A DNA stretch of 64,000 bases, from positions 1 through 64,000 of IMG/VR virus record IMGVR_UViG_3300010429_000303; one strand, 5' to 3'. Below are positions 2,234 to 33,541 of the stretch, in pieces; position 1 is the first letter of the stretch, and every line of letters begins with the position of its first letter. The position numbers and the translations under genes were made by a program. Below the pieces are notes generated by a model. It saw nothing but the letters and a program-made list of their open reading frames with translations. It was not told the DNA's origin and did no database searches. Source of the stretch: a virus (Duplodnaviria; Caudoviricetes).

Positions 2234-3536
2234 ATATTTCATACCCCTAGAAATGATATAAATAGATAAAACTTCATCTAAAACGGTAAATTACACTTGA
2301 GCCATAAAGCTTTTAAACTCAGACTAGATCCAACACCCGAACAAACAGTCTTGTTGAACAAGACCTTTGGTTGTGTCCGGACCATCTGGAATCAAAGAGT
2401 AGATGGATTCAATAATTGGAGTCCAGGAACTGAAACAGTAGAACCTACCATCAAAGAATTGAAGGTCATCTATCCTTGGTTGGCTGAAGTCCCGTACAAC
2501 GCATTAGAACAGAAACTCAACGATTGGCGGTCATTTAAATCCCAATTCTTCAACAAGAAAAGGAAGAAGAAATTAGGAAAACCATCGTTTAGAAGTCGAA
2601 GAGGACGTCAATCCTTTAGGTTATCTGTGAATGGATTCTCCTTTAAAGATAATCAAGTGGTTTTAGCTAAGATAGGTAAACTAAATCTTGTTGGTTATGA
2701 TCTTTCAATCTTACCTTTAGACACCTGCAAGTCTATCACCATCTCTAAAGATCCCTCTGGAAAGTGTTTTTGTTCTATTCTGTTAGAAGTCAACATCCAA
2801 CCTAAACCCCTAACCGGTCAGATGGTTGGGATAGATTTAGGTATCAAAGATCTTTACATTCTTTCAGATGGTCAAGTTGTCGAGAACCCGAAGTGGTACC
2901 ATGAAAACCAAATGGTATTGAAGAAGGCTCAACAACGGTTAGATAGAAAAGTTAAAGACAGTCGTAGATATGAAAAGCAGCGAATCAAGGCAGCTAAGGT
3001 CTATGAGAAGATAAAGAATAGGAGAAACTACTTTCTTCACAACATCTCCTCCTCCTTAGTGACCAATTATGACCTCATCTGTCTTGAAGACTTGAATGTT
3101 TCTGGGATGGTCAAGAACCACTGTTTGGCCAAAGCCATTCAGAACGCTTCATGGTCTTCCTTTGTTCAGATGTTGACCTACAAGTGTGACTGGTACGGAA
3201 AGACCTTAGTGAAGGTTGATCGGTTCTTTCCTTCTTCTAAGACTTGTTCTTCCTGTGGCTTCAAGATGGAGAAGATGGGATTAAAGATTAGAGAATGGGT
3301 GTGTCCTTCCTGTGGCTCCAAACACCATAGAGATCATAACGCTGCAAAGAACATTCTCCAGGAAGGATTCAGAATCCTGACTGGTCAGGAGTTTGAGGGT
3401 TTCCCTAAACCCTCTTCGGCAGAGTATGTCGAATACAGACGTGGAGAGGCTATAAGTCTATTTGATGCTCGTCATCACTTAGCATCCTTCGTGAAACGTC
3501 TAGAAGTTATATGAATTTATATGATTTCGGTACTAC
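2234..3536 (+). mobile_element. TnpB-only element (IS200/IS605 or IS607 derived), copy 1
   Basis: Boundaries from by-eye alignment of three copies: AAC|AT(A/G)TTTCAT... to ...GATTTCGGTACTAC; no tnpA or terminal inverted repeats. Confidence 0.85.
2297..3514 (+). CDS. tnpB: RNA-guided endonuclease TnpB
   Basis: N-terminal KAFKLRL.PT.EQ, RuvC GIDLG / CLEDL / RDHNAAKNI, zinc finger CSSCG..CPSCG. Confidence 0.95.
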   Translation: MSHKAFKLRLDPTPEQTVLLNKTFGCVRTIWNQRVDGFNNWSPGTETVEPTIKELKVIYPWLAEVPYNALEQKLNDWRSFKSQFFNKKRKKKLGKPSFRSRRGRQSFRLSVNGFSFKDNQVVLAKIGKLNLVGYDLSILPLDTCKSITISKDPSGKCFCSILLEVNIQPKPLTGQMVGIDLGIKDLYILSDGQVVENPKWYHENQMVLKKAQQRLDRKVKDSRRYEKQRIKAAKVYEKIKNRRNYFLHNISSSLVTNYDLICLEDLNVSGMVKNHCLAKAIQNASWSSFVQMLTYKCDWYGKTLVKVDRFFPSSKTCSSCGFKMEKMGLKIREWVCPSCGSKHHRDHNAAKNILQEGFRILTGQEFEGFPKPSSAEYVEYRRGEAISLFDARHHLASFVKRLEVI

Positions 3537-3780
3537 TACAAGGTGGGATGAAATGGGACCTGATGTGACGTTTAAGGTAGAGTTGGTAGAGGGGACTCTG
3601 GTGGTGGTGTCCTCTTTGGGTGAAATCTTGCCACTGTCAGTCCTTGATGAGTTTCGGCTAACCACAAATCAGAATCAGATTGGTCGTAGATTCTGGGATG
3701 AAAAATGGGACTCTTGGTCCTATCAGATAAACACCATTGATTCTGGCTTAGATGTGACGTCGTTCATTCAAAATCTCTAA
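3511..3780 (+). CDS. Hypothetical protein (true start probably at MGPDV, outside the element)
   Basis: First codons of the ORF come from the TnpB element right end. Confidence 0.55.
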   Translation: MNLYDFGTTTRWDEMGPDVTFKVELVEGTLVVVSSLGEILPLSVLDEFRLTTNQNQIGRRFWDEKWDSWSYQINTIDSGLDVTSFIQNL

Positions 3781-3799
3781 CCTTGGACATGGAGGAATT

Positions 3800-4342
3800 G
3801 TGCTTAGTTCGATTACCTTTCTTACCGATCCTTTGCAAATTGCTAGTCTCACTGAGAAGTGGGTCGCTCAACAACATGAACATTCAGATCGCTTTGTTAC
3901 TACCCCTAGGACTGGAACCTTATTGAGGGCATTAGATCAAGAAGGTAATCGAGGCCCTATTACCAGTGTTCATTCAAAACTGGCCATGCTGTATGCCACA
4001 ATTCATCATGGACTAAAACGTAGGTGTGATGTGTGTTCAGTAAATCCTGTTTCCCACTTCTCTTTGAAGTGCTCATGCTATTGCCAGTTCTGTACTGACT
4101 ATATCCGGGCAGAATCAGAAACTTCGACGTTAAAGCACATGGGACCGGTTTACTCCCAGGTAAAGAATACTGTCTTTGGTGACTATGTAATCAGTTATCT
4201 TGAAGCTGAATATCAGAAACTTCTCAGTGAGATCCCTACCGTTTCCAGAAACGCCTATTCAGAACTTCAGGGGATGGCAACCCGAACAGATTTTCTTCTA
4301 CAAGAACTCAGAAAGAAACACAACAGTTTCATGGGGGAATGA
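3800..4342 (+). CDS. Hypothetical protein with Cys cluster (possible Zn finger)
   Basis: CDVC...CSCYCQFC; GGAGG RBS. Confidence 0.65.
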   Translation: MLSSITFLTDPLQIASLTEKWVAQQHEHSDRFVTTPRTGTLLRALDQEGNRGPITSVHSKLAMLYATIHHGLKRRCDVCSVNPVSHFSLKCSCYCQFCTDYIRAESETSTLKHMGPVYSQVKNTVFGDYVISYLEAEYQKLLSEIPTVSRNAYSELQGMATRTDFLLQELRKKHNSFMGE

Positions 4343-9113: not shown

Positions 9114-10655
9114 GTGACTATGAAGTTTTTTACTTCGGTAGAATACCGTAAAGGTCAGTTGTTTGTTAGGGGTTATGATGAGGTTGGAGAACAAGTAAAG
9201 TATAAGACTTTAGGAGACGATATAGATCTTAGATTATGGATTCACGATCCTAGTGGTCATTCAGACAAGATCGCCTTTGATGGGAGTCCATTACGTGAAA
9301 CCCGTTTTAACTCATTCAGTGAGATTGAAGACTTCAATAAGTCGTTTGGTAAAGAACATCTCGATATTCATGGAGTATTCCCTTTTGAAAATCAGTATAT
9401 AACCCAAAAAGGTCTTTATGAAAATCCTGATTTTTCAAAGATAAGAATAGCTGTTTGTGATATTGAAACCACTTCAAGTAATGGATTTCCCAGTACGACA
9501 GATCCTCAAGAGATGGTTCAGATTTGTTCTCTGTGGAACTCAAGAACCCAAAGAATTAGAGTATTCTGTTTAGATGTTCCAGACTTGGCTGAAACAGAGT
9601 TTGGCTCAGATGTAGATATTATTCCTTGTCAAACTGAATCTGAGTTGTTGCACAAGGTACTTGATTACTTTGCCCAAGAACAGTTTGATGTTATCTCTGC
9701 TTGGAATGGAGATTTGTTTGACTATCCATATCTATACTACCGAGCAAAAGCTATTCTTTCAAAGAAGGATGCCCAGAAGTTTTCTCCTTGGCGGGTTGTC
9801 GGGGAAAACACTATCAACGTAAATAACCGAACTCTCCCGGTAGTAAACTTTTTGGGTTCTACGTGTCTTGACTATCTTTCTCTCTATAAGAAGTTTATGT
9901 CGGTAAAGCAAGAATCGTATAAGCTTGATCATATAGCCGAAGTTGAACTTGGAGAGAGGAAGTTAGACTATTCCGAGTATGGTACTCTTCAAGAATTTTG
10001 GGAAAAAGATCCCATTAGCTATTTCAAATATAATATTCAAGACGTTAGATTGGTAGTAGCCCTAGACAAGAAACTTAAACTGTTTGAATTGATCTTTACC
10101 TTAGGCTACATTGCAAGAACTAATTTCTCCGATATCTATTCCCCAGTAAAAACATGGGAATCGTTGTGTTACAACTATCTTTGGGATAGGGGAATGGTAG
10201 TTCCTCCTTCAAAGGTTAACACCAAGCAACGTTCATTTGCAGGGGCTTATGTTAAAGAACCTATCCCTGGATTATACACCGACGTGGTATCTTTTGACGT
10301 TACTTCACTTTATCCCTCACTGATTAGAATGTTGAACATTTCTCCTGAGACTAGGATAACTCACTCTACGTTAGAACTTCCAAATACCGATCTCTTAGAA
10401 ACTTTATTGGATATAACTCTAGTCAAAGAACACGACCCGTTAAAGAACCTAATCAAAGAAGTATTACCAGAACAACAATTAACAATGTCTATCAATCAGC
10501 AATTCTACACCAAGACCGTAGAAGGGATGATTCCTAACATCATGAGTTCTTTGTTTAATAGACGTGTGCTAGCAAAGAAAGAAAAGATTAAACTTGAACA
10601 AGAATTAGAGACTTTAGAAGAGGAGTTGGCCTCCAATGCTGAGACCATGGACTGA
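9114..10655 (+). CDS. 43: DNA polymerase gp43, N-terminal subunit (exonuclease, motif A, first fingers helix)
   Basis: DIET, NGDLFDYPY, YNIQDV, SFDVTSLYPS; ends after RRVLAKK. Confidence 0.93.
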   Translation: MTMKFFTSVEYRKGQLFVRGYDEVGEQVKYKTLGDDIDLRLWIHDPSGHSDKIAFDGSPLRETRFNSFSEIEDFNKSFGKEHLDIHGVFPFENQYITQKGLYENPDFSKIRIAVCDIETTSSNGFPSTTDPQEMVQICSLWNSRTQRIRVFCLDVPDLAETEFGSDVDIIPCQTESELLHKVLDYFAQEQFDVISAWNGDLFDYPYLYYRAKAILSKKDAQKFSPWRVVGENTINVNNRTLPVVNFLGSTCLDYLSLYKKFMSVKQESYKLDHIAEVELGERKLDYSEYGTLQEFWEKDPISYFKYNIQDVRLVVALDKKLKLFELIFTLGYIARTNFSDIYSPVKTWESLCYNYLWDRGMVVPPSKVNTKQRSFAGAYVKEPIPGLYTDVVSFDVTSLYPSLIRMLNISPETRITHSTLELPNTDLLETLLDITLVKEHDPLKNLIKEVLPEQQLTMSINQQFYTKTVEGMIPNIMSSLFNRRVLAKKEKIKLEQELETLEEELASNAETMD

Positions 10656-10878
10656 GAAGAAATGGGTGTGGGACAATGAACTAAACTGTTTAGTTCAGAA
10701 AGTTGAAGTGACTGTTCAGGTGGTAGGTTCAGCTGGATCTATTTTTGTGGAGGAAGGCCCACTCCTGGTGAATAACGGCCAAGAAATCTTTGAGGTGGTC
10801 ACTATTCTTAAAGGACGATTGAAGGGTAAACTCGCCAAACTCCATTCTCAGTCTGAAGATGGATCCATCAACCCATAA
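10636..10878 (+). CDS. Hypothetical protein between gp43 halves
   Basis: 80-aa ORF with AGGAG upstream. Confidence 0.5.
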   Translation: MLRPWTEKKWVWDNELNCLVQKVEVTVQVVGSAGSIFVEEGPLLVNNGQEIFEVVTILKGRLKGKLAKLHSQSEDGSINP

Positions 10879-11492
10879 AGCATTTTCCGAGTATAGACAA
10901 ACATATCTCTAGTAGTGCAGGGTAATGTGATGTAGGTCTGACAACAGAAGAAAACCACATCTCCAGAAGCCAGTTCGGTTCTCCTAGCATTCATGAATCT
11001 ACCTACATCAACCTTTTTCTCTTTATGGAGTCTATCCAGTTCTTCCTCTCGCTCATCATCAGAATCAAAGTCTTTAAGATGATCGATGATATCAGAAACA
11101 CCAAAGGTAATCAGGTTATACTTCTGGCCTTGAGGAAAAACGGTTACTTCGAATCGTGGGTTGAATTTTTTGGGAATGGTACGTTCCCAATACACAGCAG
11201 GGAATGCAGATGTTGCAAACGGTAAATTGTAGGTATTTGCAAGCCAATTTGCTATCAGAGTTCTAATTTCATAGTCTAATCGATCCTCCTCAGGGGGATT
11301 GATTTTTTTCATCTTAGTAAAGTCTAAGGTATTGTTCTTTTCAGTCTGGGAGATATACTTTAAGAAGAGTGGCTTTCCTTGCATAGAAGGAGAAGTTATA
11401 TCCTTAGAGAAGAGAGCCATAGGACTGGACACAATACTCTGAAGCCCACGCTGGAGTTGTTCGTTTTGTAAGAATTCGAGATATGTGACCAT
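10848..11492 (-). CDS. Hypothetical protein, capsid-targeting-like N-terminus (MVTYLEFLQNE)
   Basis: 214-aa antisense ORF preceded by ACTAAATA on the minus strand. Confidence 0.75.
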   Translation of the reverse strand: MVTYLEFLQNEQLQRGLQSIVSSPMALFSKDITSPSMQGKPLFLKYISQTEKNNTLDFTKMKKINPPEEDRLDYEIRTLIANWLANTYNLPFATSAFPAVYWERTIPKKFNPRFEVTVFPQGQKYNLITFGVSDIIDHLKDFDSDDEREEELDRLHKEKKVDVGRFMNARRTELASGDVVFFCCQTYITLPCTTRDMFVYTRKMLYGLMDPSSD

Positions 11493-11508
11493 TGGGAATA
11501 TCCGGTAG

Positions 11509-11537
11509 TTGACTTTTGACTGAATCTATGTTACCCT
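11509..11537 (+). promoter_or_regulatory. Sigma70-type promoter for the gp43 C-terminal gene
   Basis: TTGACT-N17-TACCCT with extended TG. Confidence 0.55.
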
Positions 11538-11540
11538 AAC

Positions 11541-11548
11541 TATTTAGT
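11541..11548 (-). promoter_or_regulatory. Late-promoter motif ACTAAATA
   Basis: tatttagt on + strand, about 50 nt upstream of ORF 11492(-). Confidence 0.6.
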
Positions 11549-11559
11549 GGGAGTGGATA

Positions 11560-12627
11560 ATGCCATCCAGAAGTGAACTTAAAGAAAGAATAACGTTTCT
11601 ACACAACAAGATAGCCTCTTTAGACACAGAACAAAATGCGTTAAAGATCTTAGCTAACTCTGGCTATGGCTCTATTGGTAATCAGTATTTTAGATATTTT
11701 CAGTTAGAGAATGCAGAAGCCATTACCTTGACTGGACAATTCGTGATTAGATATATTGAGAACGAATTGAATGGATTTTTGAATAAACTTATTGGATTAG
11801 AGAAAGACAGAGTCATCATTCTCGATACAGATTCGGTAGTTTTAGAACTTTCTGATCTGTTTATAGACTCAGATATCCCAGTAGAGGATAGGATAGATAT
11901 TCTTGACAACTTTGCTAAACAGACTGTTCAGCCTCATATAGAGAAAACTATCAAAAGGATTGAAACAATCCTTAACTCATTTCCTAAACTCCTTTCAATG
12001 AAACGTGAGATTATAGCCAACAAAACTATTGTGTTGGCTAAGAAACGATATATCATGAATGTCTTTGATAAGGAAGGAGTACGGTTTAAAGAAGCCAAGA
12101 AGAAGATTATGGGCATTGAAGCAGTACGTTCTTCAACTCCCCCTCTCTGTAAGGACATGATCAAGAATACCTTGGATGTATTCTTTACTTCAGATAATGA
12201 ACATATTTTAAACTTCATAGAGGAATGTCGAAGAAGATTCTTTGCCGAAGAGGATCTAGCAAAAATATCATTTCCCCGAGGACTTCAGAGTCTTAGTGAT
12301 TATGAGAACAAGACTCAATCTATCCCTATTCATGTTTCAGCCGCGTTTGCGTTTAATAAGTTTATTAAAGAACAGAACTTAACCAAGAAGTATGAGATTA
12401 TCAAGTCAGGAGAAAAGATAAAGTTTTGTTATCTGACTATTCCAAATCCATTTCATTCTCATGTCATTGGCTGGACTACCACCTGGTGTCCAAAAGAACT
12501 TGAACTGGAAAAGTTTATTGATAAAAATAAACATTTTCAGGTAGGGTACCTCAATGGTATTGAGTCTATCATTACCGCTATTGGGTGGCAAACAGAGTTA
12601 TCTTCAGATTTAAATGACATGTTCTGA
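11560..12627 (+). CDS. 43: DNA polymerase gp43, C-terminal subunit (motifs B, C, thumb)
   Basis: KILANSGYG, ITLTGQ, DTDS, KKRY, GIEAVRSSTP, clamp-binding tail LNDMF. Confidence 0.95.
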   Translation: MPSRSELKERITFLHNKIASLDTEQNALKILANSGYGSIGNQYFRYFQLENAEAITLTGQFVIRYIENELNGFLNKLIGLEKDRVIILDTDSVVLELSDLFIDSDIPVEDRIDILDNFAKQTVQPHIEKTIKRIETILNSFPKLLSMKREIIANKTIVLAKKRYIMNVFDKEGVRFKEAKKKIMGIEAVRSSTPPLCKDMIKNTLDVFFTSDNEHILNFIEECRRRFFAEEDLAKISFPRGLQSLSDYENKTQSIPIHVSAAFAFNKFIKEQNLTKKYEIIKSGEKIKFCYLTIPNPFHSHVIGWTTTWCPKELELEKFIDKNKHFQVGYLNGIESIITAIGWQTELSSDLNDMF

Positions 12628-12644: not shown

Positions 12645-14114
12645 ATGTCCTCGTTTTTAAAATCAGTAATCAAGCGGATAGACAACAAGAATGCTACTAT
12701 TGCAGATTCTGGAATCTATTCAGATGTAACTGGCTTCATCAATACTGGAACTTTACTCCTTAATGCCTTGTTTTCTGGATCCATGTTCAAAGGAATCCCA
12801 GACAATAAGATTACTATGGTAGCTGGACCTGAAGGGGTAGGCAAGAGCTTTATGCTCCTGTCTATCATCTCATCCTTCTTAAAGGAATACCCGGAAGGGA
12901 ATGCAGTTATCTTTGAATCTGAGTCGGCTATTCAGTCTAAGACACTAACAGACTTCAATATAGACACAGAACGGGTGCTGTTTGTCCCGGTGTCAACTGT
13001 TCAAGAATTTAGGTCACAATCACTTCAGATCTTAGATGAGTATGAAAAGTTACCTGAGGCCCAACGAAAGAAGGAGAGAATGTTTATCTGTCTAGACTCC
13101 TTAGGCAATCTCTCTACCTCAAAGGAGATGGAAGATTCATTGGCAGGAAAAGAGACCATGGACATGACTAGGGCTAAGTTGATTAAGTCTGTTTTTAGGA
13201 CTATCTCCATTCGTCTAGGGTTATTGAAGGTTCCTTTCTTCTGTACCAATCATATCTATATGTCTCAATCTTTATTCCCCTCTGCCATAGCCTCTGGGGG
13301 GTGCCTTATGGTCGGGGAGAAGCTACGGATGTTTGATGGAACTCTTATTCCAATCGAGGAAGTTAAGGTTGGATACCAAGTAGCTACCCAAGCTGGGTCT
13401 GGAACAGTGGCTAAAGTTTGGACCCCTGAAACATTGGATGATGGATTCCCACAATGTTATCGTCTTTTCTTTATTGATGAAGAAAAGACGCTAAGTGTTG
13501 TGAATTGTTCAGAGAATCATAAATTCCTTCTTGATGAAAACTGGGTGCCAGCAAAAGATGTTCAGATTGAGGACAAATTAACGACTAAGGACGGCACGAT
13601 TGAAGTGTTCCATAAGTTTGATTTAGGGTTCAATAAGGTTTATGATATTGAAGTCTTTCCTGACTCAAACTATATTCTTGAAAATGGGTTAATCTGTCAT
13701 AACTCAGGCACTAAGTATGCAGCCTCTACCATTGTATTTCTCTCTAAGAAGAAGGAGAAAGAGGGTACCTTACATGCAGGGAACATCGTACACTGCAAAC
13801 TTGATAAGTCCAGGTTTACTAAAGAAGGCTCTCAGGTTGATCTGTTGATAAACTTCTCCAAGGGTCTAGATCCTTTTTGGGGAGTTTTAGATATGATGAT
13901 TGAAGCTGGTTTAGTGAAACAGAGTGGTACCCGGTATGAATTTCCTTCAGGGGAGAAGGTGTTCAGGAAGGTTGTCAATGCAAATCCAGAGACCTACTTC
14001 ACTCCAGAACTCTTAAATAAACTGGATGAGTTTCTTGGAAAGAAGTTTTTGTATGGTTGTGTTCTAGATAACCAAGATCTCTCTGAGGAGTCTGATGATT
14101 CAGACACCCTCTAA
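12645..14114 (+). CDS. uvsX: RecA-like recombinase UvsX with intein
   Basis: AGPEGVGKS, DSLGNL, DMTRAK, TNHIY, SGG|intein|SGTKYAAS. Confidence 0.93.
   Translation: MSSFLKSVIKRIDNKNATIADSGIYSDVTGFINTGTLLLNALFSGSMFKGIPDNKITMVAGPEGVGKSFMLLSIISSFLKEYPEGNAVIFESESAIQSKTLTDFNIDTERVLFVPVSTVQEFRSQSLQILDEYEKLPEAQRKKERMFICLDSLGNLSTSKEMEDSLAGKETMDMTRAKLIKSVFRTISIRLGLLKVPFFCTNHIYMSQSLFPSAIASGGCLMVGEKLRMFDGTLIPIEEVKVGYQVATQAGSGTVAKVWTPETLDDGFPQCYRLFFIDEEKTLSVVNCSENHKFLLDENWVPAKDVQIEDKLTTKDGTIEVFHKFDLGFNKVYDIEVFPDSNYILENGLICHNSGTKYAASTIVFLSKKKEKEGTLHAGNIVHCKLDKSRFTKEGSQVDLLINFSKGLDPFWGVLDMMIEAGLVKQSGTRYEFPSGEKVFRKVVNANPETYFTPELLNKLDEFLGKKFLYGCVLDNQDLSEESDDSDTL
13302..13703 (+). mobile_element. Mini-intein (134 aa) in UvsX
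   Basis: CLMVGEKL, CSENHKFL, VYDIEV, NGLICHN followed by S. Confidence 0.92.
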
Positions 14115-14544: not shown

Positions 14545-14545
14545 T

Positions 14546-18250: not shown

Positions 18251-18972
18251 CCATTCCCTTCAACAAAGACGATCCTGAGTTTCAGAAGTTCTTAGGAAAG
18301 CTGAGAACCTCCTATACCAAAGAACTTCTGGAATCTATCTTGAAAGAATGTAAACCGTTTCTTAAGGCCACTAAGGCCTATAAACGACAGTTATTTCTAA
18401 TGGGAAATGGCTTTGCTTCAGTACCTCCTTTGATCAGGGATACCATTCTATATTGGCAACATCAGAAGTTTGGGTTTTGCCAACAACCCTACTTTACCGT
18501 ATTAAATAAGACCAAGTTAGGGAAGATTTTAGAACGAGTAGTCACTTTCACATCATTCACCACGTCTAAATCCCTTTCTGAAGAAACCATCTACGCTTTT
18601 CCAATTGGGGAGTTTGAAACATTTTGGTCACCACTAGTCCCATCAATCAACTTAATCTTTAAGAATCTCATCTTTAAGAAGCCAGAAAAAGAACAATTCT
18701 TGACTTCGATAAAGTGTTCCCCACACCTTCGAGAAGTTGTTCGGAAACATCAAGAAACCATCCAAGTCTTACAGACTTCTACCTCTAACGCAGAGATCGT
18801 AAAGGCTACCTTAGATATCTTAGCCGATCTTAGATATCAAAATACTGAGTTCTATTCGGGTTATAATTCAGGAAACGAGCTACAATTCAACTGTGTAGGA
18901 TTCTTCTTAGCCAAGAGTTCTGAACTGGATGAAGATTTGTTGAAAACCACCCTTAAAAATTTTAAATCTTGA
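18247..18972 (+). CDS. Hypothetical protein, probable paralogue of 23504..23995
   Basis: LKECKPFLK and AFPIGEF motifs. Confidence 0.7.
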   Translation: MTIPFNKDDPEFQKFLGKLRTSYTKELLESILKECKPFLKATKAYKRQLFLMGNGFASVPPLIRDTILYWQHQKFGFCQQPYFTVLNKTKLGKILERVVTFTSFTTSKSLSEETIYAFPIGEFETFWSPLVPSINLIFKNLIFKKPEKEQFLTSIKCSPHLREVVRKHQETIQVLQTSTSNAEIVKATLDILADLRYQNTEFYSGYNSGNELQFNCVGFFLAKSSELDEDLLKTTLKNFKS

Positions 18973-23516: not shown

Positions 23517-23995
23517 ATAAAGACCAGCTATTAAAACAACAAAGACAGGTTATCAACAATGCGTACACTCATGTATCATACCTTCTTAAAGAATGCAGAC
23601 CCTTCTTAAAAGGTTATATCAAAGGAGAGTATGGTCTCCTTAGAACAGATAAACGACTACTGTTTCAGACTCTTCCAAAGAAAAATGATGATGGTACGTT
23701 ACTGCCTATTCAATTAGACTTGTCTGCTTCCGGTCCTTGGTGTGTATTCCCAGCAGGGGAACTTGACATTGAGGATGACCGTGTTATACTGGATACAGAA
23801 CTTCCAGCTGGCCTATCCAAACCCCAGTTAATCAACATCATTCTAAATGATGCTATTGCCAATGAAAAGATGCTTAGTATCTACTGTATCAAAGCGTTTA
23901 CCTTGGAGTATAAGATGTTCAAGTCTATTGAGAGTTCCCTTAAGAACACCTTTAACAACATGTTTCATCCCTCTAGAAATGATATAAATAGATAA
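23504..23995 (+). CDS. Hypothetical protein, C-terminus altered by TnpB insertion
   Basis: LKECRPFLK and VFPAGEL; last 11 codons come from the element left end. Confidence 0.7.
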   Translation: MFKLNKDQLLKQQRQVINNAYTHVSYLLKECRPFLKGYIKGEYGLLRTDKRLLFQTLPKKNDDGTLLPIQLDLSASGPWCVFPAGELDIEDDRVILDTELPAGLSKPQLINIILNDAIANEKMLSIYCIKAFTLEYKMFKSIESSLKNTFNNMFHPSRNDINR

Positions 23996-25252
23996 AAATT
24001 CATCTAAAACGGTAAATTTCACGTGAGCCATAAAGCCTTTAAACTCAGACTAGATCCCACACCAGAACAGTCAGTCTTGTTGAACAAGACTTTTGGCTGT
24101 GTCAGGGCTATCTGGAATCAAAGAGTAGATGGCTTCAATAACTGGAAACCAGGAACTCAAACAGTAGAACCAACCATCAAGGAGTTGAAGGTCATCTATC
24201 CTTGGTTGGCTGAAGTTCCTTACAACGCATTAGAACAAAAACTCAACGATTGGCGATCATTTAAATCACAATTCTTCAACAAGAAAAGGAAGAAGAAGCT
24301 TGGAAGACCAACCTTTAAAAGTCGTAGGGCACGCCAATCCTTTAGGTTATCTGTGAATGGATTCTCCTTTAAAGATAATCAAGTGGTTTTAGCTAAGATA
24401 GGTAAACTAAATCTTGTTGGTTATGATCTTTCAACCTTACCTTTAGAGACCTGTAAGTCTATCACCATCTCTAAAGACCCTTCTGGTAAATGTTTTTGTT
24501 CTATTCTGCTAGAAGTCACTATCCAACCTAAACCCCTAACTGGTCAGCTGGTTGGCATAGATTTAGGCATCAAAGATCTTTACATTCTTTCAGATGGTCA
24601 AGTTGTTGAAAACCCCAAGTGGTACCATGAAAACCAAATGGTATTGAAGAAGGCTCAACAACGGTTAGATAGAAAGGTTAAAGGTAGTAAACGGTATGAA
24701 AAGCAGCGAATCAAGGCAGCTAAGGTCTATGAGAGGATAAAGAATAGGAGAAACTATTTTCTTCACAACATCTCTTCTTCCTTAGTGACCAACTACGATC
24801 TTATCTGTCTTGAAGATTTGAACGTCCTTGGGATGGTCAAGAACCACTGTTTGGCCAAAGCCATTCAGAATGCTTCATGGTCTTCCTTTGTAGCCATGTT
24901 GACCTACAAGTGTGACTGGTATGGAAAGACCTTAGTGAAGGTTGATCGGTTCTTCCCCTCCTCCAAGACCTGTTCTTCCTGTGGCTTCAAGATGGAGAAG
25001 ATGGGGTTAAAGATCAGGGAATGGACCTGTCCTTCTTGTGGTTCAAGACATCATAGAGATCATAACGCTGCAAAGAACATTCTCCAGGAGGGATTTAGAA
25101 TCCTGACTGGTCAGGAGTTTGAGGGTTTCCCTAAACCCTCTTCGGCAGAGTATGTCGAATACAGACGTGGAGAGGTTATAAGTCTATTTGATGCTCGCCA
25201 TCACTTAGCATCCTTCGTGAAACGTCTAGAAGTTATATGATTTCGGTACTAC
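23960..25252 (+). mobile_element. TnpB-only element, copy 2 (10-bp deletion near right end)
   Basis: Same ends as copies 1 and 3; 1293 bp versus 1303 bp. Confidence 0.85.
24023..25240 (+). CDS. tnpB: RNA-guided endonuclease TnpB
   Basis: Near-identical to 2297..3514; RuvC D/E/D intact. Confidence 0.95.
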   Translation: MSHKAFKLRLDPTPEQSVLLNKTFGCVRAIWNQRVDGFNNWKPGTQTVEPTIKELKVIYPWLAEVPYNALEQKLNDWRSFKSQFFNKKRKKKLGRPTFKSRRARQSFRLSVNGFSFKDNQVVLAKIGKLNLVGYDLSTLPLETCKSITISKDPSGKCFCSILLEVTIQPKPLTGQLVGIDLGIKDLYILSDGQVVENPKWYHENQMVLKKAQQRLDRKVKGSKRYEKQRIKAAKVYERIKNRRNYFLHNISSSLVTNYDLICLEDLNVLGMVKNHCLAKAIQNASWSSFVAMLTYKCDWYGKTLVKVDRFFPSSKTCSSCGFKMEKMGLKIREWTCPSCGSRHHRDHNAAKNILQEGFRILTGQEFEGFPKPSSAEYVEYRRGEVISLFDARHHLASFVKRLEVI

Positions 25253-25275
25253 AATCTACTAAAGCTTGAGAGCAC

Positions 25276-25728
25276 ATGATAGTCTATAAGGCTAAACGGT
25301 TTACTAAAACTTCAGATGTTAGTAAACATTACATCACCAATACTGAGTTGCTCCCGTTAATCACTGAATACCGGGAGACTCGAAAACTAACTCCTGAATT
25401 TGCTAAAGCATTGATGTTGATTGCCAAGAAGTTAAGTACATCCCCTAATTTTAGGGGATATGAGTTTATTGATGATTGCATTCAGGATGCGTTGTTATGT
25501 TGTGTTAAGTATGTTCATAACTTCGACCCAGAAAAATCTAAGAATCCTTTTGGCTATGTTACTGAGATAATGAAGTTTGCCTTTCTTGGGCGGATCAATA
25601 AGGAGAATGGGTGGAATAAGCTTAAGAGTAAAGCACGAATGTATGATGCAGAAGGATTCCTCATTATAGATGAGGACTTAGTTCAAAAAATGAATGATAC
25701 TTCTAACTTATGGTCTGATGAGGAATAA
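25276..25728 (+). CDS. 55: Late sigma factor gp55
   Basis: [14 protein letters not shown](CI)[25 protein letters not shown]. Confidence 0.92.
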
Positions 25729-26618
25729 TGATGAGAGAACAAACCTTAAGAGTTTCTGAGATATTTGGGGGTACTCTTCCAGGCCAGGATATTATTCCGG
25801 TAATTCAAGGGGAAGGAAGGTTTGTGGGTACTCCGTCAATCTTTGTGAGGTTGTTTGGGTGTAATCTTAGATGTCCTGGATTCGGGAATCCAAACTTTAA
25901 GATAGGGACTAAGAACCAAGAAGTTAAAGAGATTGTTGACAACTTAGTGTATTTTAAGACTCTTCAGGATCTTCCTAGAGTCAAGACGGGATGTGATACC
26001 TACTATGCGGTTTATCCTGAATTTAAATCATTTTCTAAAGACTATACCATTCATGAGTTGGTAAAGGCTATTCAGGTCAGACTTTATACCGAGTACAAGC
26101 CACCTCACCTGGTATTCACTGGGGGAGAACCACTTCTCTGGCAAACTCAGCTAAGTTCACTTCTTAAAGAACTAGAAAGTACTAGAATTAAGGACATAAC
26201 CTTTGAGACTAATGGTACCATAGAACTTTCGCAAAAATTTATTGATACGGTAAGGAATACTCCTTTTACTATCACCTGGTCTGTTTCCCCGAAACTTACA
26301 TGTTCTGGACATAATACGTGTGAAACTTTAGACCCTGCTGCTCTACGATCTTATAATAAGATTCCTAATTCAAAGTTGTATCTAAAGTTTGTAGTGGATA
26401 AGGGACAAAAAACCTTAGATGAACTTTTGATTTTTACAAAACGTTATGCCCTTGAAGGAGTAGAAGTAGACAATGTCTACCTCATGCCAGAAGGGGGGAA
26501 CTTCGATGAGTCCTATAAGGCTAATCGAACCTATGTGGTAGGACTGTGTTCTTATCTAGGATTCAACTATTCTCCAAGACTTCAAGTAGAGTTGTTTGAC
26601 AATGTAGTAGGTTCTTGA
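25728..26618 (+). CDS. queE: QueE-like 7-carboxy-7-deazaguanine synthase (radical SAM)
   Basis: [59 protein letters not shown]. Confidence 0.8.
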
Positions 26619-26621
26619 GCT

Positions 26622-27683
26622 ATGACTATTGCCTTAGTCACTGATACCCACATGGGGGCCAGAAATAACTGTACAGTTTTCAATGAGCATTTTCTTAAGT
26701 TCTTCAATGAAGTATTCTTTCCTACCTTAGAGAAGCATAATATAACCACCGTAATCCACCTAGGGGATCTTGGAGAGTACAAACGTACCATCAACACCTT
26801 GATACTTGATTCTTGGAACAAGGAAGTATTTAAGCCCTTGGAAAAGTATCAAGTATGGATGTTGATTGGTAACCACGATCTGTTTTACAAGCATAAAAAC
26901 ACTATCTCCTTACAAACCTCGTTGGAATTAGCAGAAAGGTTTGGGTTCAATGTAGTGACAGAGAGACCCCTGAAGTTGCCTATGGGCTCTAAAGTACTTG
27001 ATTTAGTTCCTTGGGTTTCTTCAGGTAACTATCAGGAAGTGGAAGAGTTTATTTCTAACTCGACCGCCGACTACCTCCTATGCCACATGGAGTTTGCTGG
27101 AGCTCCCCTCCTTCCAGGAATCCTTTGTTCAGAATCTCAGATAGAACCCACATTGACGAGTAGGTATAGGAAAATCCTTTCTGGTCATTTTCACCTCAGA
27201 TCTACTCATGGAAACGTGACCTATATTGGCAATCCTTACGAGATAAATTGGGCAGATGTGAACCAACTTAAAGGCTTTACTTTATTCGATCCAGAGACTG
27301 GACAGTTAGACTACATCAACAATCCACATACTCTTTTCTTTAAAGCCAGTATCAACACTGAGTCTGATCTTGCAAACTTTGATATATCTCAGTGTACTAA
27401 GAAGCATGTAAAGTTGTTTATTTCAAGTTATATAAAAACTAAAGATGTCGAGAACTTAGTTTCTAGGATAGATAAAGAAGGGGTTCTCTCCTTAGTAATC
27501 CAGGATACTAAAGTAGAATTAGATTCTGTTGACCAACTTCAATCTGAATTTCCAGACACGTTACACTATATTAAGAACTTTGTGCATAAACTGTATGATC
27601 ACCAGAATATTCAATTGAATAAAGATAGATTGATAGGTAAACTGGAACATATCTATTCCTTAGCCCAGACTCTGGAGATTTAG
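26622..27683 (+). CDS. 47: Recombination nuclease gp47 (Mre11/SbcD-like)
   Basis: TDTHMG, HLGD, GNHD, SGHFH. Confidence 0.93.
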   Translation: MTIALVTDTHMGARNNCTVFNEHFLKFFNEVFFPTLEKHNITTVIHLGDLGEYKRTINTLILDSWNKEVFKPLEKYQVWMLIGNHDLFYKHKNTISLQTSLELAERFGFNVVTERPLKLPMGSKVLDLVPWVSSGNYQEVEEFISNSTADYLLCHMEFAGAPLLPGILCSESQIEPTLTSRYRKILSGHFHLRSTHGNVTYIGNPYEINWADVNQLKGFTLFDPETGQLDYINNPHTLFFKASINTESDLANFDISQCTKKHVKLFISSYIKTKDVENLVSRIDKEGVLSLVIQDTKVELDSVDQLQSEFPDTLHYIKNFVHKLYDHQNIQLNKDRLIGKLEHIYSLAQTLEI

Positions 27684-29882
27684 ATGATAGTCTTTGAACG
27701 ACTCTCCATAAAGAACTTTCTTTCTTATGGCCAGATTCCCTCCATAATTGATCTTAATACCCATGCAAAGACTTTAATATGTTCTCCAAACGGGATGGGA
27801 AAATGTCTTAGGGGATCTACCACTATTCAAGTGAGGTCTGACCATAAAGGAGAGACTAAAACCATTCAACTTAAAGATCTGTTTTCTTCGTATTGGGGAA
27901 TATCATTACTGCTAAAGCAATTCAACTCAGAAAAACTTAAAGAATCACTCCTGGTAGGTGATCTTTTAGTTTTAACGGAGTCTGGGTGGACTAACATTCA
28001 AGCAGTTCATAAGACAGTATCATTGCCGGTTATGCAAGTAACTACTGAGAATGGCCATATTCTGGAAGGATCATTAGATCACCCAGTATTCTTAGCCTCA
28101 GGGGAAATAAGATTCTTAAAGGACCTAGTTCCGGGACATGATAACCTCAGTACCTTTGAAGGATCTTCTTTAGTAGTTAAACAGGAACTCTTGTCGGTAG
28201 AAGAAGAACTGTATGATATTTCGGTTGATTCCCCCAACAAGGCATATTTTGCAAATGGGATTCTTTCTCACAACACGGCAATACCAACTGCATTATTGTT
28301 TGGGTTGTTTGGCAAGACTCACCGAAAAGTAAATCTGCCTCAGTTGGTCAACAACATCAATGGGGCTGAATGTGAAGTTGAAGTCTGGTTCTCTTTGGGG
28401 CATAAAGACCACTATCATATCCATCGGGGAATCAAGCCTTCCTTCCTAAACATCACTAGGAATGGAGAACCCCTTCTAGGAACAACCACTTCAGATCTTC
28501 AAGATAGATTAGAGAAACAAATCTTAAAGACTGATTTCAAGACTTTTTCTTCTATTATTACTATAGGAGGAAAGAACCAGATTCCTTTTATGGCTCTTAG
28601 GAGACAGGATAGGCGGCAAATCATTGAAAGTCTCTTGGATATTGATATTTTCTCTTCAATGAATGGGATAGCCAAGAGTCAATCTTCAGAGTTACATGAA
28701 CAGTTAAAAGCAAAAAAGGATGAGATTAGGAAAAAGGAACATGAACTGGCTGTGTTGAAGGAGAGTATCAGGAAGGCAAAACATCTATTGGATGAAAGTG
28801 ACCACTCCAAACAGACCTCTATCAACAAGTATCAGGAACAATTGGCTGAGTTGGCCAAAGAGAAAGGTGAAATAGAGAATAGGTTGAATAACATTCATGA
28901 TACCTTTGGTCATATTCAGACATTAGATCAGACATTCAGTAATAAGCATAACACCTTGGAGTTTACCTATTCTTCTGAACAGAAGAAACTGATGCAGTTC
29001 AATAAACACATGGAGTTTTATGCCCAGAAGGATGAGTGCCCTACCTGTAATCAACCCCTGTCTGAAGAATACCGACAACGATCATTGGAATCCATTCAAG
29101 CAAAGATAACCAAATGTCAGTCGTGTATGGATCAGACTAAGATTATGCTTTCTGAACTTACTAACCTACACCAGGAAGTTAAACAGACCTTATTGCAGTA
29201 TAATGAACTCCTGTTTCAACGTTCACAGGTTCTTCAAAAAGAAGAGAAAATAATTTCAATAATTCAGGCTCTTGACAAACCCAAAAATTGTGTTATACTT
29301 AACTCAGTTAAGGAAGATGAAGAACGGTTATCCGGGTTGTATGAACAGCTAATAACTCTAAGAAAGGATCTCGAAGCCTTACAAGAACAACAAGAATATT
29401 TAGACTTTTGTCAGGTACTTCTTAAAGATGATGGAATCAAGACGTTGATCATAAAGGAATATCTACCAAAGTTGAATAGTATTCTTAATCAGTTTTTAGA
29501 TGATTTAGATCTCTTTATTGACTTCAATTTTGATGAATCCTTTAATGAAATAATCAAGTCAAGATTTCGTGAATTGTTCTCTTACGATTCATTTTCAGAT
29601 GGACAGAAGATGCGGATAGACATTGCCCTCCTGTTTACCTGGCGGGAAATCGCCAAACATAGGAACTCGTTAAATACTAATGTCCTGTTTTGTGATGAAT
29701 TGTTTGATTCGTCCTTAGATGCAAATGCTACTGAGTTAGCTATACGATTACTTGATTCCTCCTGTAAAGATACATGTTGCTATGTAATTTCACATAAATC
29801 GGACTTGTTTGAATCTAAGATGGATAGAATTATACAATGTTCTTTAGAGAACAACTTCACCCAACTTAAAGAGATAGTCTAA
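27684..29882 (+). CDS. 46: Recombination ATPase gp46 (Rad50/SbcC-like) with intein
   Basis: KNFLSYG, NGMGK|intein|T, CPTC hook, FSDGQ, DELFDSSLD. Confidence 0.93.
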   Translation: MIVFERLSIKNFLSYGQIPSIIDLNTHAKTLICSPNGMGKCLRGSTTIQVRSDHKGETKTIQLKDLFSSYWGISLLLKQFNSEKLKESLLVGDLLVLTESGWTNIQAVHKTVSLPVMQVTTENGHILEGSLDHPVFLASGEIRFLKDLVPGHDNLSTFEGSSLVVKQELLSVEEELYDISVDSPNKAYFANGILSHNTAIPTALLFGLFGKTHRKVNLPQLVNNINGAECEVEVWFSLGHKDHYHIHRGIKPSFLNITRNGEPLLGTTTSDLQDRLEKQILKTDFKTFSSIITIGGKNQIPFMALRRQDRRQIIESLLDIDIFSSMNGIAKSQSSELHEQLKAKKDEIRKKEHELAVLKESIRKAKHLLDESDHSKQTSINKYQEQLAELAKEKGEIENRLNNIHDTFGHIQTLDQTFSNKHNTLEFTYSSEQKKLMQFNKHMEFYAQKDECPTCNQPLSEEYRQRSLESIQAKITKCQSCMDQTKIMLSELTNLHQEVKQTLLQYNELLFQRSQVLQKEEKIISIIQALDKPKNCVILNSVKEDEERLSGLYEQLITLRKDLEALQEQQEYLDFCQVLLKDDGIKTLIIKEYLPKLNSILNQFLDDLDLFIDFNFDESFNEIIKSRFRELFSYDSFSDGQKMRIDIALLFTWREIAKHRNSLNTNVLFCDELFDSSLDANATELAIRLLDSSCKDTCCYVISHKSDLFESKMDRIIQCSLENNFTQLKEIV
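27804..28274 (+). mobile_element. Mini-intein (157 aa) in gp46 Walker A
   Basis: CLRGST, SLDHPVF, LYDISV, NGILSHN followed by T. Confidence 0.92.
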
Positions 29883-29893
29883 GGAGATTTGGC

Positions 29894-30418
29894 ATGACTA
29901 AAAAGGATATAATGGAACTGATCATTGAAAAATCTAAGGATTCAGATATAGATCCTGAGTTCTTACTGACAATGGCCAATATTGAATCTGCATTCAACCC
30001 CAATGCGAGAAACAAGTTTTCAGGGGCAGCAGGGTTGTACCAGTTTATTCCCTCAACAGCCAGGGCGTATGGGTTAAGAAATCCTTATGATCCCAATCAA
30101 GCTATAGCGGCGGTCATTAAGTTTACTAAAGCTAATGCAAAGATTCTTTCAGGGGCTGGCATCCAGGTTACTGGGGCAAACTTATATCTAGCCCACCAAC
30201 AAGGGGCGGGTGGGGCTATTGCCCTATACCGAAGTGCTACCAGAGGAACTCCATTAGATAGAACAATCAGGCGGAACATTTCTGCAAATGGGGGGAAAGG
30301 GATGTCTGCTCAACAGTTCATAGACTTCTGGAAGAAGAACTACCTCAGTAAACTTCTAAAAACTCGGGTGTTGCTGAAGGAACATGGGCTTACCTTAGAG
30401 GGATCTAATGATGAGTAG
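29894..30418 (+). CDS. Lytic transglycosylase (SLT-like)
   Basis: IESAFNPNA, AAGLYQF..ST, YLAHQQG. Confidence 0.88.
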   Translation: MTKKDIMELIIEKSKDSDIDPEFLLTMANIESAFNPNARNKFSGAAGLYQFIPSTARAYGLRNPYDPNQAIAAVIKFTKANAKILSGAGIQVTGANLYLAHQQGAGGAIALYRSATRGTPLDRTIRRNISANGGKGMSAQQFIDFWKKNYLSKLLKTRVLLKEHGLTLEGSNDE

Positions 30419-30923
30419 GATGACGTTTAAGGAGTTTCTTCAAAGCTTAGGGGTAGTTAACGGGTCGAGTGAAGAACTCCAAAGTGAAAGTCTTTCTATT
30501 CATGCAAAAGAAAGATCACTTGAAAGGAGAATCCCAGAAGGATTGCAAAAGTTATTGGGTAACGTGTTCGAACCGTTCCTATACTACTATCTAAAAAGTA
30601 ATAGTGAATTCAATGTCAATAAGTCAGGAGAAAAAGGTACTGAGTTTGTAGTAATGGTAACCTTTAACGATCAAGACTATTGTTTTGTAGGGACTTACAA
30701 GAAGGATAAACTCAAGAAAGAGGTTACCCCTTTCATTCTCTGGCTAACGATGTTTAAAGTTAATCCACCGTTGTTCATTAAATCAGGAACCGCCTACCGA
30801 TTTGATATCAAGGAGCTCAAGGAAAATGAAAAGGATGCTCAGATAACTATTAGGACCAACCGTCGAAGATTCTCGTTTACTATCGAGAAAAATCCTGTAA
30901 CCTTGTCCACTAAACGTAAATAA
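30408..30923 (+). CDS. Hypothetical protein (MTFKEFLQ N-terminus)
   Basis: 171-aa ORF. Confidence 0.7.
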   Translation: MMSRMTFKEFLQSLGVVNGSSEELQSESLSIHAKERSLERRIPEGLQKLLGNVFEPFLYYYLKSNSEFNVNKSGEKGTEFVVMVTFNDQDYCFVGTYKKDKLKKEVTPFILWLTMFKVNPPLFIKSGTAYRFDIKELKENEKDAQITIRTNRRRFSFTIEKNPVTLSTKRK

Positions 30924-31246: not shown

Positions 31247-32140
31247 ATGCCATCAGATATCTTTCAAAAGCTAAAAGCTAATCGTGGAACTTCAGACAAC
31301 GTTTCTTCATTACTTTCTCAAATCGATAAAGTTGAGACAAAGAGTTTTGACGATGAACGTCAATGGAAACTTACTGTAGATCAAGCAGGGAATGGCTCTG
31401 CTATCATTAGGTTCTTGCCTGGACCAAAAGACGAGAAGTTTGAGAAGTTGTATAACCATGCATTTAAGAATCCACTTTCAGGAAAGTGGTTTATTGAGAA
31501 TTGTCCGACTACTATCGGGTTAGATTGTCCGGTGTGCTCAGAAAATACGAAGCAATGGTCTACTGGTATTCCACAAAATCAGGAAATTGTTCGGGTTCGT
31601 AAACGGAATCTGAAATACATCTCTAATATCTATGTGGTTGCTGATCCTAAGAATAAGGAAGCAGAGGGCCGGGTATTCTTATTCAAGTATGGTCCTAAAA
31701 TCTTTGAGAAGATTAAGTTAGCAGCAAAACCACTCTTCCCAGGAGTTAAGCCTTGTAATGTCTTTGATATGTGGGAAGGGGCTAATTTTCAACTCCTCTG
31801 TACCATGGTAAAGAAACAACGAAATTACGATTCCTCTGTCTTCGAATCACGGAGTCAGTTGATTGAAGATGAAGAAGTGCTCCAAAAGATTTGGGAATCC
31901 CAATTTGCTCTCTCTGAGTTTGTTGATCCTGCTCAGTTCAAGAGTTATGTTGAAATTGAAAAGAAATTTAAAGATTTTTGTTCATCAGGAGAGACTAACT
32001 CTTCAGTTCGTGATCACATCCAGCCAGAGTCTTATGCTTCAGGGGCAGTGGATACTTCAGAGGATAAATCCTCCAAATATCAAAAGTTTCTGGATAAGTT
32101 CAGTTCTTCTTCGGAAGAGGATGACGACATCCCGTTCTAA
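31247..32140 (+). CDS. 32: ssDNA-binding protein gp32
   Basis: DERQWKL..D.AGNGSAIIRFLP, WFIENCPTTIG..CPVC, GANF, RNYD, acidic tail DDDIPF. Confidence 0.95.
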   Translation: MPSDIFQKLKANRGTSDNVSSLLSQIDKVETKSFDDERQWKLTVDQAGNGSAIIRFLPGPKDEKFEKLYNHAFKNPLSGKWFIENCPTTIGLDCPVCSENTKQWSTGIPQNQEIVRVRKRNLKYISNIYVVADPKNKEAEGRVFLFKYGPKIFEKIKLAAKPLFPGVKPCNVFDMWEGANFQLLCTMVKKQRNYDSSVFESRSQLIEDEEVLQKIWESQFALSEFVDPAQFKSYVEIEKKFKDFCSSGETNSSVRDHIQPESYASGAVDTSEDKSSKYQKFLDKFSSSSEEDDDIPF

Positions 32141-32173
32141 TATGGAAACTTAAAGCCACTTAAAGAAGTCAAC

Positions 32174-32202
32174 AAAAAGCCGGCATCTAGCCGGCTTTTT
32201 TT
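32174..32202. terminator. Bidirectional rho-independent terminator
   Basis: AAAAAGCCGGC-atcta-GCCGGCTTTTTTT. Confidence 0.9.
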
Positions 32203-32238
32203 GTGTCTGGAAGGTTAATTTTAGAACAATCGCCTAAC

Positions 32239-33541
32239 ATGTTTCATACCCCTAGAAATGATATAAATAGATAAAACTTCATCTAAAACGGTAAATTACA
32301 CTTGAGCCATAAAGCCTTTAAACTCAGACTACATCCCACACCAGAACAAACAGTCTTGTTGAACAAGACCTTTGGTTGTGTCCGATCTATCTGGAATCAA
32401 AGAGTAGATGGCTTCAATAACTGGAGTCCAGGAATTGAAACAGTAGAACCTACCATCAAAGAATTGAAGGTCATCTATCCTTGGTTGTCTGATGTTCCTT
32501 ACAACGCATTAGAACAAAAACTCAACGATTGGCGGTCATTTAAATCCCAATTCTTCAACAAGAAAAGGAAGAAGAAGCTTGGAAGACCAACCTTTAAAAG
32601 CCGAAGAGGACGTCAATCCTTTAGGTTATCCATAAATGGATTCTCCTTTAAGGATAATCAAGTGGTTTTAGCTAAGATAGGTAAACTAAATCTTGTTGGT
32701 TATGATCTTTCAATCTTACCTTTAGAGACTTGCAAGTCTATCACCATCTCTAAAGACCCTTCTGGAAAGTGTTTTTGTTCTATTCTGTTAGAGGTCAATA
32801 TCCAACCTAAACCCCTAACCGGTCAGATGATTGGCATAGATTTAGGCATCAAAGATCTTTACATCCTTTCAGATGGTCAAGTTGTCGAGAACCCCAAGTG
32901 GTACCATGAAAACCAAGTGGTATTGAAGAAGGCTCAACAACGGTTAGATAGAAAGGTTAAAGGTAGTGGACGGTTTGAAAAGCAGCGAATCAAGGCAGCT
33001 AAGGTCTACGAGAAGATAAAGAACAAACGGAACTACTTTCTTCACAACATCTCCTCTTCCTTAGTGACCAATTATGATCTTATCTGTCTTGAAGATCTGA
33101 ATGTCTCTGGAATGGTAAAAAATCACTGTTTGGCCAAAGCCATTCAAAACGCTTCATGGTCTTCTTTTGTTCAGATGCTGGCCTACAAGTGTGACTGGTA
33201 TGGAAAGACCTTAGTGAAGGTTGATCGGTTCTTTCCTTCCTCTAAGACTTGTTCTTCCTGTGGCTTCAAGATGGATAAGATGCCTTTATCTATTCGAGAA
33301 TGGATCTGTCCTTCTTGTGGTTCAAGACACCATAGAGATCATAACGCTGCAAAGAACATTCTCCAGGAGGGATTTAGAATCCTAACTGGTCAGGAGTTTG
33401 AGGGTTTCCCTAAACCCTCTTCGGCAGAGTATGTCGAATACAGACGTGGAGAGGTTATAAGTCTATTTGATGCTCGTCATCACTTAGCATCCTTCGTGAA
33501 ACGTCTAGAAATTATATGAATTTATATGATTTCGGTACTAC
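32239..33541 (+). mobile_element. TnpB-only element, copy 3
   Basis: Same ends; between the gp32 terminator and the tape-measure stop. Confidence 0.85.
32302..33519 (+). CDS. tnpB: RNA-guided endonuclease TnpB
   Basis: Near-identical to the other copies; RuvC D/E/D intact. Confidence 0.95.
   Translation: MSHKAFKLRLHPTPEQTVLLNKTFGCVRSIWNQRVDGFNNWSPGIETVEPTIKELKVIYPWLSDVPYNALEQKLNDWRSFKSQFFNKKRKKKLGRPTFKSRRGRQSFRLSINGFSFKDNQVVLAKIGKLNLVGYDLSILPLETCKSITISKDPSGKCFCSILLEVNIQPKPLTGQMIGIDLGIKDLYILSDGQVVENPKWYHENQVVLKKAQQRLDRKVKGSGRFEKQRIKAAKVYEKIKNKRNYFLHNISSSLVTNYDLICLEDLNVSGMVKNHCLAKAIQNASWSSFVQMLAYKCDWYGKTLVKVDRFFPSSKTCSSCGFKMDKMPLSIREWICPSCGSRHHRDHNAAKNILQEGFRILTGQEFEGFPKPSSAEYVEYRRGEVISLFDARHHLASFVKRLEII

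Follow-up and report, generated by a model that had tools for sequence, protein, structure and literature searches.

How do three genes for TnpB, the ancestor of Cas12, persist in a phage genome in which no transposase gene can be found? The question is raised by the first 64 kb of the 100,851-bp IMG/VR contig IMGVR_UViG_3300010429_000303, a stretch of 64,000 nucleotides that we call the window; the contig is estimated at 56% of its genome and, judged by its gene content, derives from a distant and uncultured T4-like phage. TnpB is thought to persist by RNA-guided homing, and the demonstrations of such homing known to us are confined to bacteria and plasmids and to settings in which a transposase is present. 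We consider it reasonably probable that the three loci are non-autonomous TnpB/omegaRNA insertion elements of a T4-like-phage lineage, transcribed late in infection and spreading by non-restorative homing. The evidence comes from the anatomy of the elements, from filled and empty alleles in related phages and from a promoter-like box in the left ends.

Three intact TnpB/omegaRNA elements

The limits of the elements were set by aligning the three copies and their flanks with six further copies from four IMG/VR contigs. All three lie on the plus strand: copy 1 (1303 bp) at 2234..3536, with boundaries taken from the three-copy alignment and related loci, copy 2 (1296 bp) at 23957..25252, where an exact empty allele joins 23956 to 25253, and copy 3 (1303 bp) at 32239..33541. 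Every element is located directly 3' of the tetranucleotide TAAC (2230..2233, 23953..23956 and 32235..32238, plus strand), terminates in GGTACTAC and shows no target duplication. TAAC, the putative target or transposon-adjacent motif (TAM), precedes seven of eight close copies and is also present in the empty allele of the copy 2 locus (L125). The left end is short (63-66 nt), and the right end folds into an 11-pair hairpin 8 nt from the element tip, which in copy 3 (33508..33533, plus strand) would be the 3' terminal stem of the omegaRNA. Elements of the IS200/IS605 type carry subterminal hairpins at both ends; here the left end holds only a decayed homologue of the right-end hairpin. At the left junction of copy 2 there are three extra nucleotides (AAC), and the element takes the place of the final 8 codons of the open reading frame (ORF) 23504-23995. 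No further element fragments were found in the contig.

The three tnpB genes (copy 1, 2297..3514, TTG start without a Shine-Dalgarno sequence; copy 2, 24023..25240, GTG start; copy 3, 32302..33519, TTG start; all plus strand) each encode 405 aa and are 94-95% identical to one another at the protein level. All share the domain order HTH_OrfB_IS605, OrfB_IS605 (RuvC) and Cas12f1-like_TNB zinc ribbon (E 1e-12 to 1e-27), and their closest solved structure is ISDra2 TnpB (E 3e-66), with which the RuvC residues D180/E264/D346 and the zinc-finger cysteines C317, C320, C336 and C339, invariant in 26 homologues, align. Other metagenomic TnpB homologues exist at 59-72% identity. A preliminary description had called the three proteins diverged but intact, with the RuvC D/E/D triad kept, which the Pfam matches and the residue alignment bear out. 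It had also remarked that many differences were synonymous, and the substitution rates agree: differences between the copies are mostly synonymous, with a ratio of nonsynonymous to synonymous substitution rates (dN/dS) of 0.08-0.14 at dS 0.27-0.34, and 21 pairs from a wider set gave dN/dS 0.07-0.17 at dS 0.27-0.42. On these rates the copies are old paralogues under purifying selection, neither recent duplicates nor relics.

The last ~215 nt of the element fold better than every shuffled sequence (z = -2.84). A consensus drawn from 16 sequences of two clades, this one and a sister clade at 53-58% TnpB identity, contains 34 pairs. Because eight of these pairs are compensatory, the conserved 3' region (3322..3536 in copy 1, plus strand, overlapping the tnpB 3' end and the right end) is, by covariation, an omegaRNA scaffold. 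This TnpB clade adds an extra stem that covaries in loci L005 and L008, and no Rfam family matches the element RNA. Directly upstream of a full copy in contig IMGVR_UViG_3300010429_000657 we also observed a mini element of ~255 nt (L009:2885-3147), which has a left end with TATAAATA (93% identical to that of its neighbour), an omegaRNA scaffold (80%) and a right end but lacks a tnpB ORF. The mini element resembles a guide-only satellite and would have to rely on TnpB supplied in trans.

The absence of tnpA from the window, likewise reported in the preliminary description, extends to the rest of the contig. Neither a Y1 transposase (PF01797) nor a serine recombinase (PF00239) was detected in its 100,851 bp or in the related contigs G001-G004, of which G002 and G004 seem to extend the same kind of genome past both contig ends; 224 kb of the lineage gave no transposase gene. 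Y1 was also absent from five sister-clade phage records, two of them complete, and one complete 243-kb sister-clade genome (G006) carries four full copies plus fragments (4-5 copies) with no transposase of either kind. The sole autonomous member of the clade, L218, has 54% TnpB identity, is nested in the clade, lies on a phage contig and bears an overlapping tnpA with a Resolvase domain. Since the only autonomous member has a serine-recombinase tnpA, the lineage is IS607-related; IS605, with its Y1 transposase, was rejected as the source family on the same ground.

Filled and empty alleles among near-identical phages

Contig IMGVR_UViG_3300027924_000119 is 98.6% identical to window positions 10803-30568, and the site of copy 2 is precisely empty in this near-identical contig. 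Here 23956 is joined to 25253, and the predicted target comes directly after TAAC, matching at every guide position except 15. In the empty allele the upstream ORF is 8 codons longer and overlaps the start of the gene for gp55, the late sigma factor. The reverse arrangement occurs at site A (18675..18698, plus strand), which is unoccupied in the window but holds a full element in the near-identical contig, inserted between 18678 and 18679. The window allele of site A retains 20/20 target identity but reads TAAG for TAAC, an Asn to Lys change in ORF 18247-18972. From these two filled and empty pairs we deduced the geometry of the guide, which would be the right flank of each element: 3537..3556 for copy 1, 25253..25272 for copy 2, where the L125 empty allele differs only at position 15, and 33542..33561 for copy 3 (all plus strand). 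A 12-nt exact match to the copy 1 guide seed at contig position 88825 (minus strand, outside the window) was set aside as probably due to chance, being preceded by GGAGG and not by TAAC. Empty alleles of copies 1 and 3 were not found in exact-match searches of IMG/VR.

An uncertain third case, site B (30561..30588, plus strand), comprises TAAC (30561-30564) and a 24-nt in-frame stretch inside ORF 30408-30923, assembled from the outermost nucleotides of the element, the first 5 nt on the left and the last 6 nt on the right. The near-identical contig has a full element at this site and is missing window positions 30565-30745. The stretch may be a deletion scar or may stem from recombination between two nearby insertions.

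Exact filled and empty alleles are thus on record between phages that are 98.6% identical, and they fit homing. The phage backbones differ by 1.4%, whereas the TnpB copies differ by ~8-10% in DNA, with no pair closer than ~8%. Because the backbone has diverged so much less than the copies, presence and absence would reflect exchange or loss among recombining phages and not recent copying within a genome. We also observed a 1.4-kb block (18879-20278), starting 200 nt to the right of site A, that is only 72-84% identical to the otherwise 98-100% identical sister contig; it is a swapped module holding two small ORFs.

A late-promoter-like box in the left ends

The left end of each element carries TATAAATA(G), at 2257..2264 in copy 1, 23983..23990 in copy 2 and 32262..32269 in copy 3 (plus strand), in each case 32 nt before the tnpB start. 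These are the only occurrences in the window, and as a raw count three is no more than chance (4.27 expected). The three matches share one alignment column of the repeated 1.3-kb element and are therefore one feature by descent, not independent events. The preliminary description had placed the motif correctly ahead of the TTG or GTG starts; its view that each element has a late motif of its own holds in that all three possess the box, and has to be amended in that a single inherited left-end feature was counted three times. It was also right about a strong terminator ahead of copy 3: an intrinsic terminator of 11 pairs with a T tail (32174..32200, plus strand) follows the gp32 gene (31247-32140) and ends 38 nt ahead of the element.

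The further proposal that TATAAATA is the phage's late promoter stands in part: the motif is conserved, linked to gp55 and rare in bacterial relatives, but the late box that this phage itself uses is ACTAAATAG. This was the top word in a de novo search for words enriched upstream of ORFs, with ten sites, all gene-proximal, 21-49 nt ahead of starts. It precedes regA, the head-closure, baseplate cap, baseplate wedge and tail-fibre-like genes and a glycosyltransferase operon. Two predicted promoters diverge on both strands at 38887..38915, before the head-closure and baseplate tube-cap genes, and other boxes are located at 1573, 8627, 55272 and 59636 (plus strand) and at 11541 and 52782 (minus strand). 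The TnpB box shares TAAATAG with the phage late box but has TA for AC, a difference at two positions.

Comparison with relatives provided the independent evidence on the nature of the box. Relatives of the sister clade reside in IMG/VR contigs of 127-250 kb that encode gp55, and their left ends cannot be aligned with those of the window except for the box, which stands at an equal distance from the ATG and in which CTAAATA, TATAAATA and CATAAATA alternate. At this position [A/C]TAAATA is preserved in four diverged left-end variants from other T4-like phages that encode gp55, a third variant (L009, 73% identity) retains TATAAATA, and TAAATA is the only block invariant across the diverged left ends. 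In L218, whose first gene is tnpA, ACTAAATA lies 25 nt ahead of that gene. Scoring [A/C]TAAATA 15-50 nt before the start, we found the box in 17/19 relatives at ≥50% identity. Among the matches listed, which in the genome and metagenome contig scans reach at most 49% identity apart from one close copy, so that bacterial relatives closer than 44% may exist, it was present in 5/75 relatives from bacterial genomes, 5/76 distant metagenomic ones and 7/55 distant viral ones. Bacterial copies thus do not conserve the motif to the same degree. When records at least 72% complete were counted, gp55 was encoded in the genomes of 5/5 copies with the box and of 0/9 copies without it. The conservation of the box and its phage specificity are established by these comparisons, and they give good support to its being a gp55-type late promoter of a phage-adapted, phage-resident lineage, from which we infer late transcription.

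Genes of the related phages themselves point in the same direction. In G006 the words most enriched ahead of ORFs include both box variants, and in G004, which belongs to the lineage studied here, TATAAATAG stands before the head-scaffold gene and ACTAAATAG before the major head gene. The G004 head-scaffold late box (L309:3843-3858, corresponding to G004 23843-23858) has 16 consecutive nucleotides in common with the left end of the TnpB element. A phage promoter was captured by the element, or else the initially transcribed region is under constraint in both sequences.

Within the element, the part of the left end that holds the box is homologous to the right-end hairpin (22/29 positions identical, reached by 0/2000 shuffles). 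Because of this homology, and because its right-end copy shows no match to a late box, the promoter-like sequence was probably shaped out of an end repeat. We also noted that the sister-clade left end (L212-L224, ~40-130 nt before the tnpB start) has two late-type boxes ~95 nt apart, with a GC hairpin between them. A long stem encloses the hairpin, and the arms of the stem covary from copy to copy. Since its 3' arm extends to the ribosome-binding region, the structure may be a switch in the 5' untranslated region.

Homing, its alternatives and known systems

The reading we prefer, late-transcribed elements that spread by non-restorative homing, would proceed as follows. Late in infection, RNA polymerase with gp55 would act at the TATAAATAG box and produce a single tnpB-omegaRNA transcript, from which tnpB, with its TTG or GTG start and no Shine-Dalgarno sequence, would be weakly initiated 32 nt downstream. 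TnpB would process this transcript into its own guide RNA, as demonstrated for other TnpBs (PMC10278001). The ribonucleoprotein would then cut TAAC and the adjoining target in co-infecting genomes without the element, and recombination-dependent repair by UvsX and gp46/47 would copy the element in. Late expression would put cutting in the phase of recombination-dependent replication. Insertion at new sites would call for an IS607-type TnpA acting in trans, from a co-infecting phage or the host.

The repair and sigma-factor genes that this scheme invokes are present. UvsX is encoded at 12645..14114 (plus strand, phrog_97), with best matches in Methylophilales and Synechococcus myophages at ~46% identity; at 489 aa, its matches to relatives fall into two separate pieces, a pattern compatible with an intein. 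The gp47/gp46 (SbcD/SbcC-like) recombination nuclease lies at 26622..29882 and the gp55-like late sigma factor at 25276..25728 (both plus strand; for gp55 phrog_234, E 5.6e-31). The latter starts 23 nt past copy 2, which (within 23957-25728) takes the place of the translationally coupled end of the upstream ORF; if the copy 2 box is a late promoter, read-through would bring the late sigma factor under its own control, a positive feedback. Further T4-like genes of the window are those for the clamp loader gp44/62, regA, gp41 helicase, NrdA, dCMP deaminase, gp32 and baseplate and head-closure proteins, together with a gp43 DNA polymerase split into two ORFs (9114-10655 and 11560-12627, within 9114-12627). 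Between these a minus-strand ORF of 214 aa (10848-11492) has no PHROG match and its own ACTAAATAG late box at 11541-11548; beside this inter-polymerase ORF, the edge of the near-identical contig carries a reversed fragment of a tnpB 5' end. The GenBank phage collection yielded no DNA match to the window and no protein match at ≥60% identity, while 610 GenBank phage records match tnpB, making phage-borne tnpB common.

Several observations weigh against the preferred reading. The lineage occupies at least eight different sites, and homing cannot create new ones. The diverged block near site A starts 200 nt off the element and does not abut it, and we do not use it as evidence of co-conversion. 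Copy 2 has a 10-nt deletion that truncates the right-end hairpin and removes most of the terminal omegaRNA stem, and its guide RNA may be impaired. All ten non-TnpB late boxes in the contig read AC and not TA before TAAATA, and a box with the A variant precedes a true late gene only in the related contig G004, which comes from another sample. The left-end box, being homologous to the right-end hairpin, may serve transposase binding. The association of the box with gp55 is phylogenetically non-independent. At 35% identity, gp55 of this phage and gp55 of G006 are too diverged for a shared specificity to be used as an argument, and we rejected it as such.

The first point is the strength of the alternative that fares best, namely that these are ordinary non-autonomous insertion sequence (IS) elements moved and excised by an IS607-type TnpA in trans, with TnpB only restoring them after excision and the polymorphism resulting from transposition and excision. 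Five or more different sites are not attainable by homing alone and a transposase in trans is needed. This alternative is also favoured by the autonomous serine-recombinase relative within the clade, itself on a phage contig, by another IS607-type element carried by G008 and G009, and by the published TnpB-only elements at different sites in T4-like Campylobacter phages (PMC2853527). No transposase gene is found, however, in the 224 kb of the lineage or in the complete G006, and no near-identical copies exist (dS ≥ 0.27) that would betray recent bursts of transposition. This explanation is also compatible with homing and does not exclude it. We regard it as rather unlikely.

A second alternative concerns the box, which could be no more than inherited left-end structure (a subterminal repeat bound by the transposase, or a hairpin in decay) or else a host sigma-70 -10 element; expression of tnpB would then be early or due to read-through, and unconnected with gp55. 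The homology to the right-end hairpin and the AC of the contig's own late boxes speak for it, as does TG-n-TATAAA, which resembles an extended -10. On the other hand, the sister clade has CTAAATA, with no -10 match, in an otherwise unalignable left end, the box is rare in bacterial relatives, the same box precedes the head-scaffold gene in the lineage, and copy 3 lies behind a terminator. A sigma-70 consensus scan called no promoter in the element left end, and the sigma-70 reading fails in the sister clade. Taken together, we judge this alternative improbable.

More doubtful still is the idea that the cassettes are not purely selfish DNA and are retained as RNA-guided weapons that benefit the phage by cutting insertion-free competitors (marker exclusion). 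It would accommodate long-term purifying selection on several paralogues per genome, the guide-only mini element adjoining a full copy in G004 and the changed TAAC of the unoccupied site A allele; against it, the guides merely equal the flanks, as for any TnpB element, and one copy disrupts an ORF in a related phage. That the elements are decaying, inactive relics, as the missing transposase gene, the degenerate left-end hairpin and the right-end deletion of copy 2 might suggest, is hardly credible given that all ORFs are intact with their catalytic residues, that the RNA structure covaries and that dN/dS of ~0.1 at dS ~0.3 already contradicts it.

Beyond homing and late transcription as such, we put forward tentatively, and with less than even confidence, a wider proposal: a transposase-independent RNA-guided homing system of T4-like phages, wired to gp55 through a promoter derived from an end repeat, with several diverged paralogues kept in each genome over long periods, guide-only mini elements alongside them, and unoccupied alleles with a changed TAAC facing it in the population. 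If homing between phages is true, it would be an RNA-guided counterpart of the T4 seg/mob endonucleases, and the box would be a case of a mobile element acquiring the temporal promoter of its host virus. Natural filled and empty alleles in near-identical lytic phages, with a readable TAAC and guide, offer a concrete system in which RNA-guided homing between co-infecting viruses can be tested, and the lineage is a source of compact TnpB/omegaRNA pairs with a predicted 4-nt TAM. Our literature search brought up no paper in which TnpB is connected with a T4-type late promoter or with homing from phage to phage; non-restorative transposon homing has been considered for phages only theoretically (PMC13565253).

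Among the closest known systems is ISDra2 TnpB/omegaRNA of the IS200/IS605 family (PDB 8BF8, 8EXA, 8H1J), together with the TnpB homing model (PMC10055086, PMC10690162). The window elements share with ISDra2 the protein family, domain order, D/E/D triad and zinc finger; in both, the omegaRNA overlaps the 3' end, the right flank supplies the guide and the left flank has a short motif. Unlike ISDra2, they have no TnpA partner, reside in a T4-like lytic phage and bear a late-promoter box in the left end; their TnpB has a 45-aa C-terminal extension and the RNA of the clade an extra covarying stem. Their TnpB is proposed to target the empty allele in a co-infecting phage genome, and not the sister chromosome after excision. 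Like IS200/IS605 elements in general, they insert 3' of a constant motif of 4-5 nt and do not duplicate the target. With the IS607 family they share the autonomous relative L218, which has a Resolvase-domain tnpA and a right end of the same kind, but they differ in lacking a serine recombinase and in inserting next to the 4-nt TAAC.

Among phage elements, ISCaje1-3, TnpB-only IS200/IS605 elements of the T4-like Campylobacter phages CP220 and CPt10 reported in 2010 (PMC2853527), resemble ours as described there in being TnpB-only, in residing in T4-like phages and in occupying different places in closely related genomes; that report describes no promoter, guide RNA or homing reading. T4-type late promoters are TATAAATA, or CTAAATA in phage Aeh1 (PMC1524935). 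The box of the window elements agrees with these in its 8 bp, the lack of a -35 element, its position 20-50 nt before a start codon and its presence in a gp55 phage; both published variants occur in this TnpB lineage, and the phage's own ACTAAATAG resembles the Aeh1 CTAAATA. It differs in belonging to a mobile element and in being two positions off the contig's own consensus. Finally, like the T4 seg/mob homing endonucleases, the window elements place a selfish nuclease gene between conserved phage genes, probably with late expression, and are present or absent among close relatives, but recognition of the target would rest on an RNA guide and TAAC instead of on a protein.

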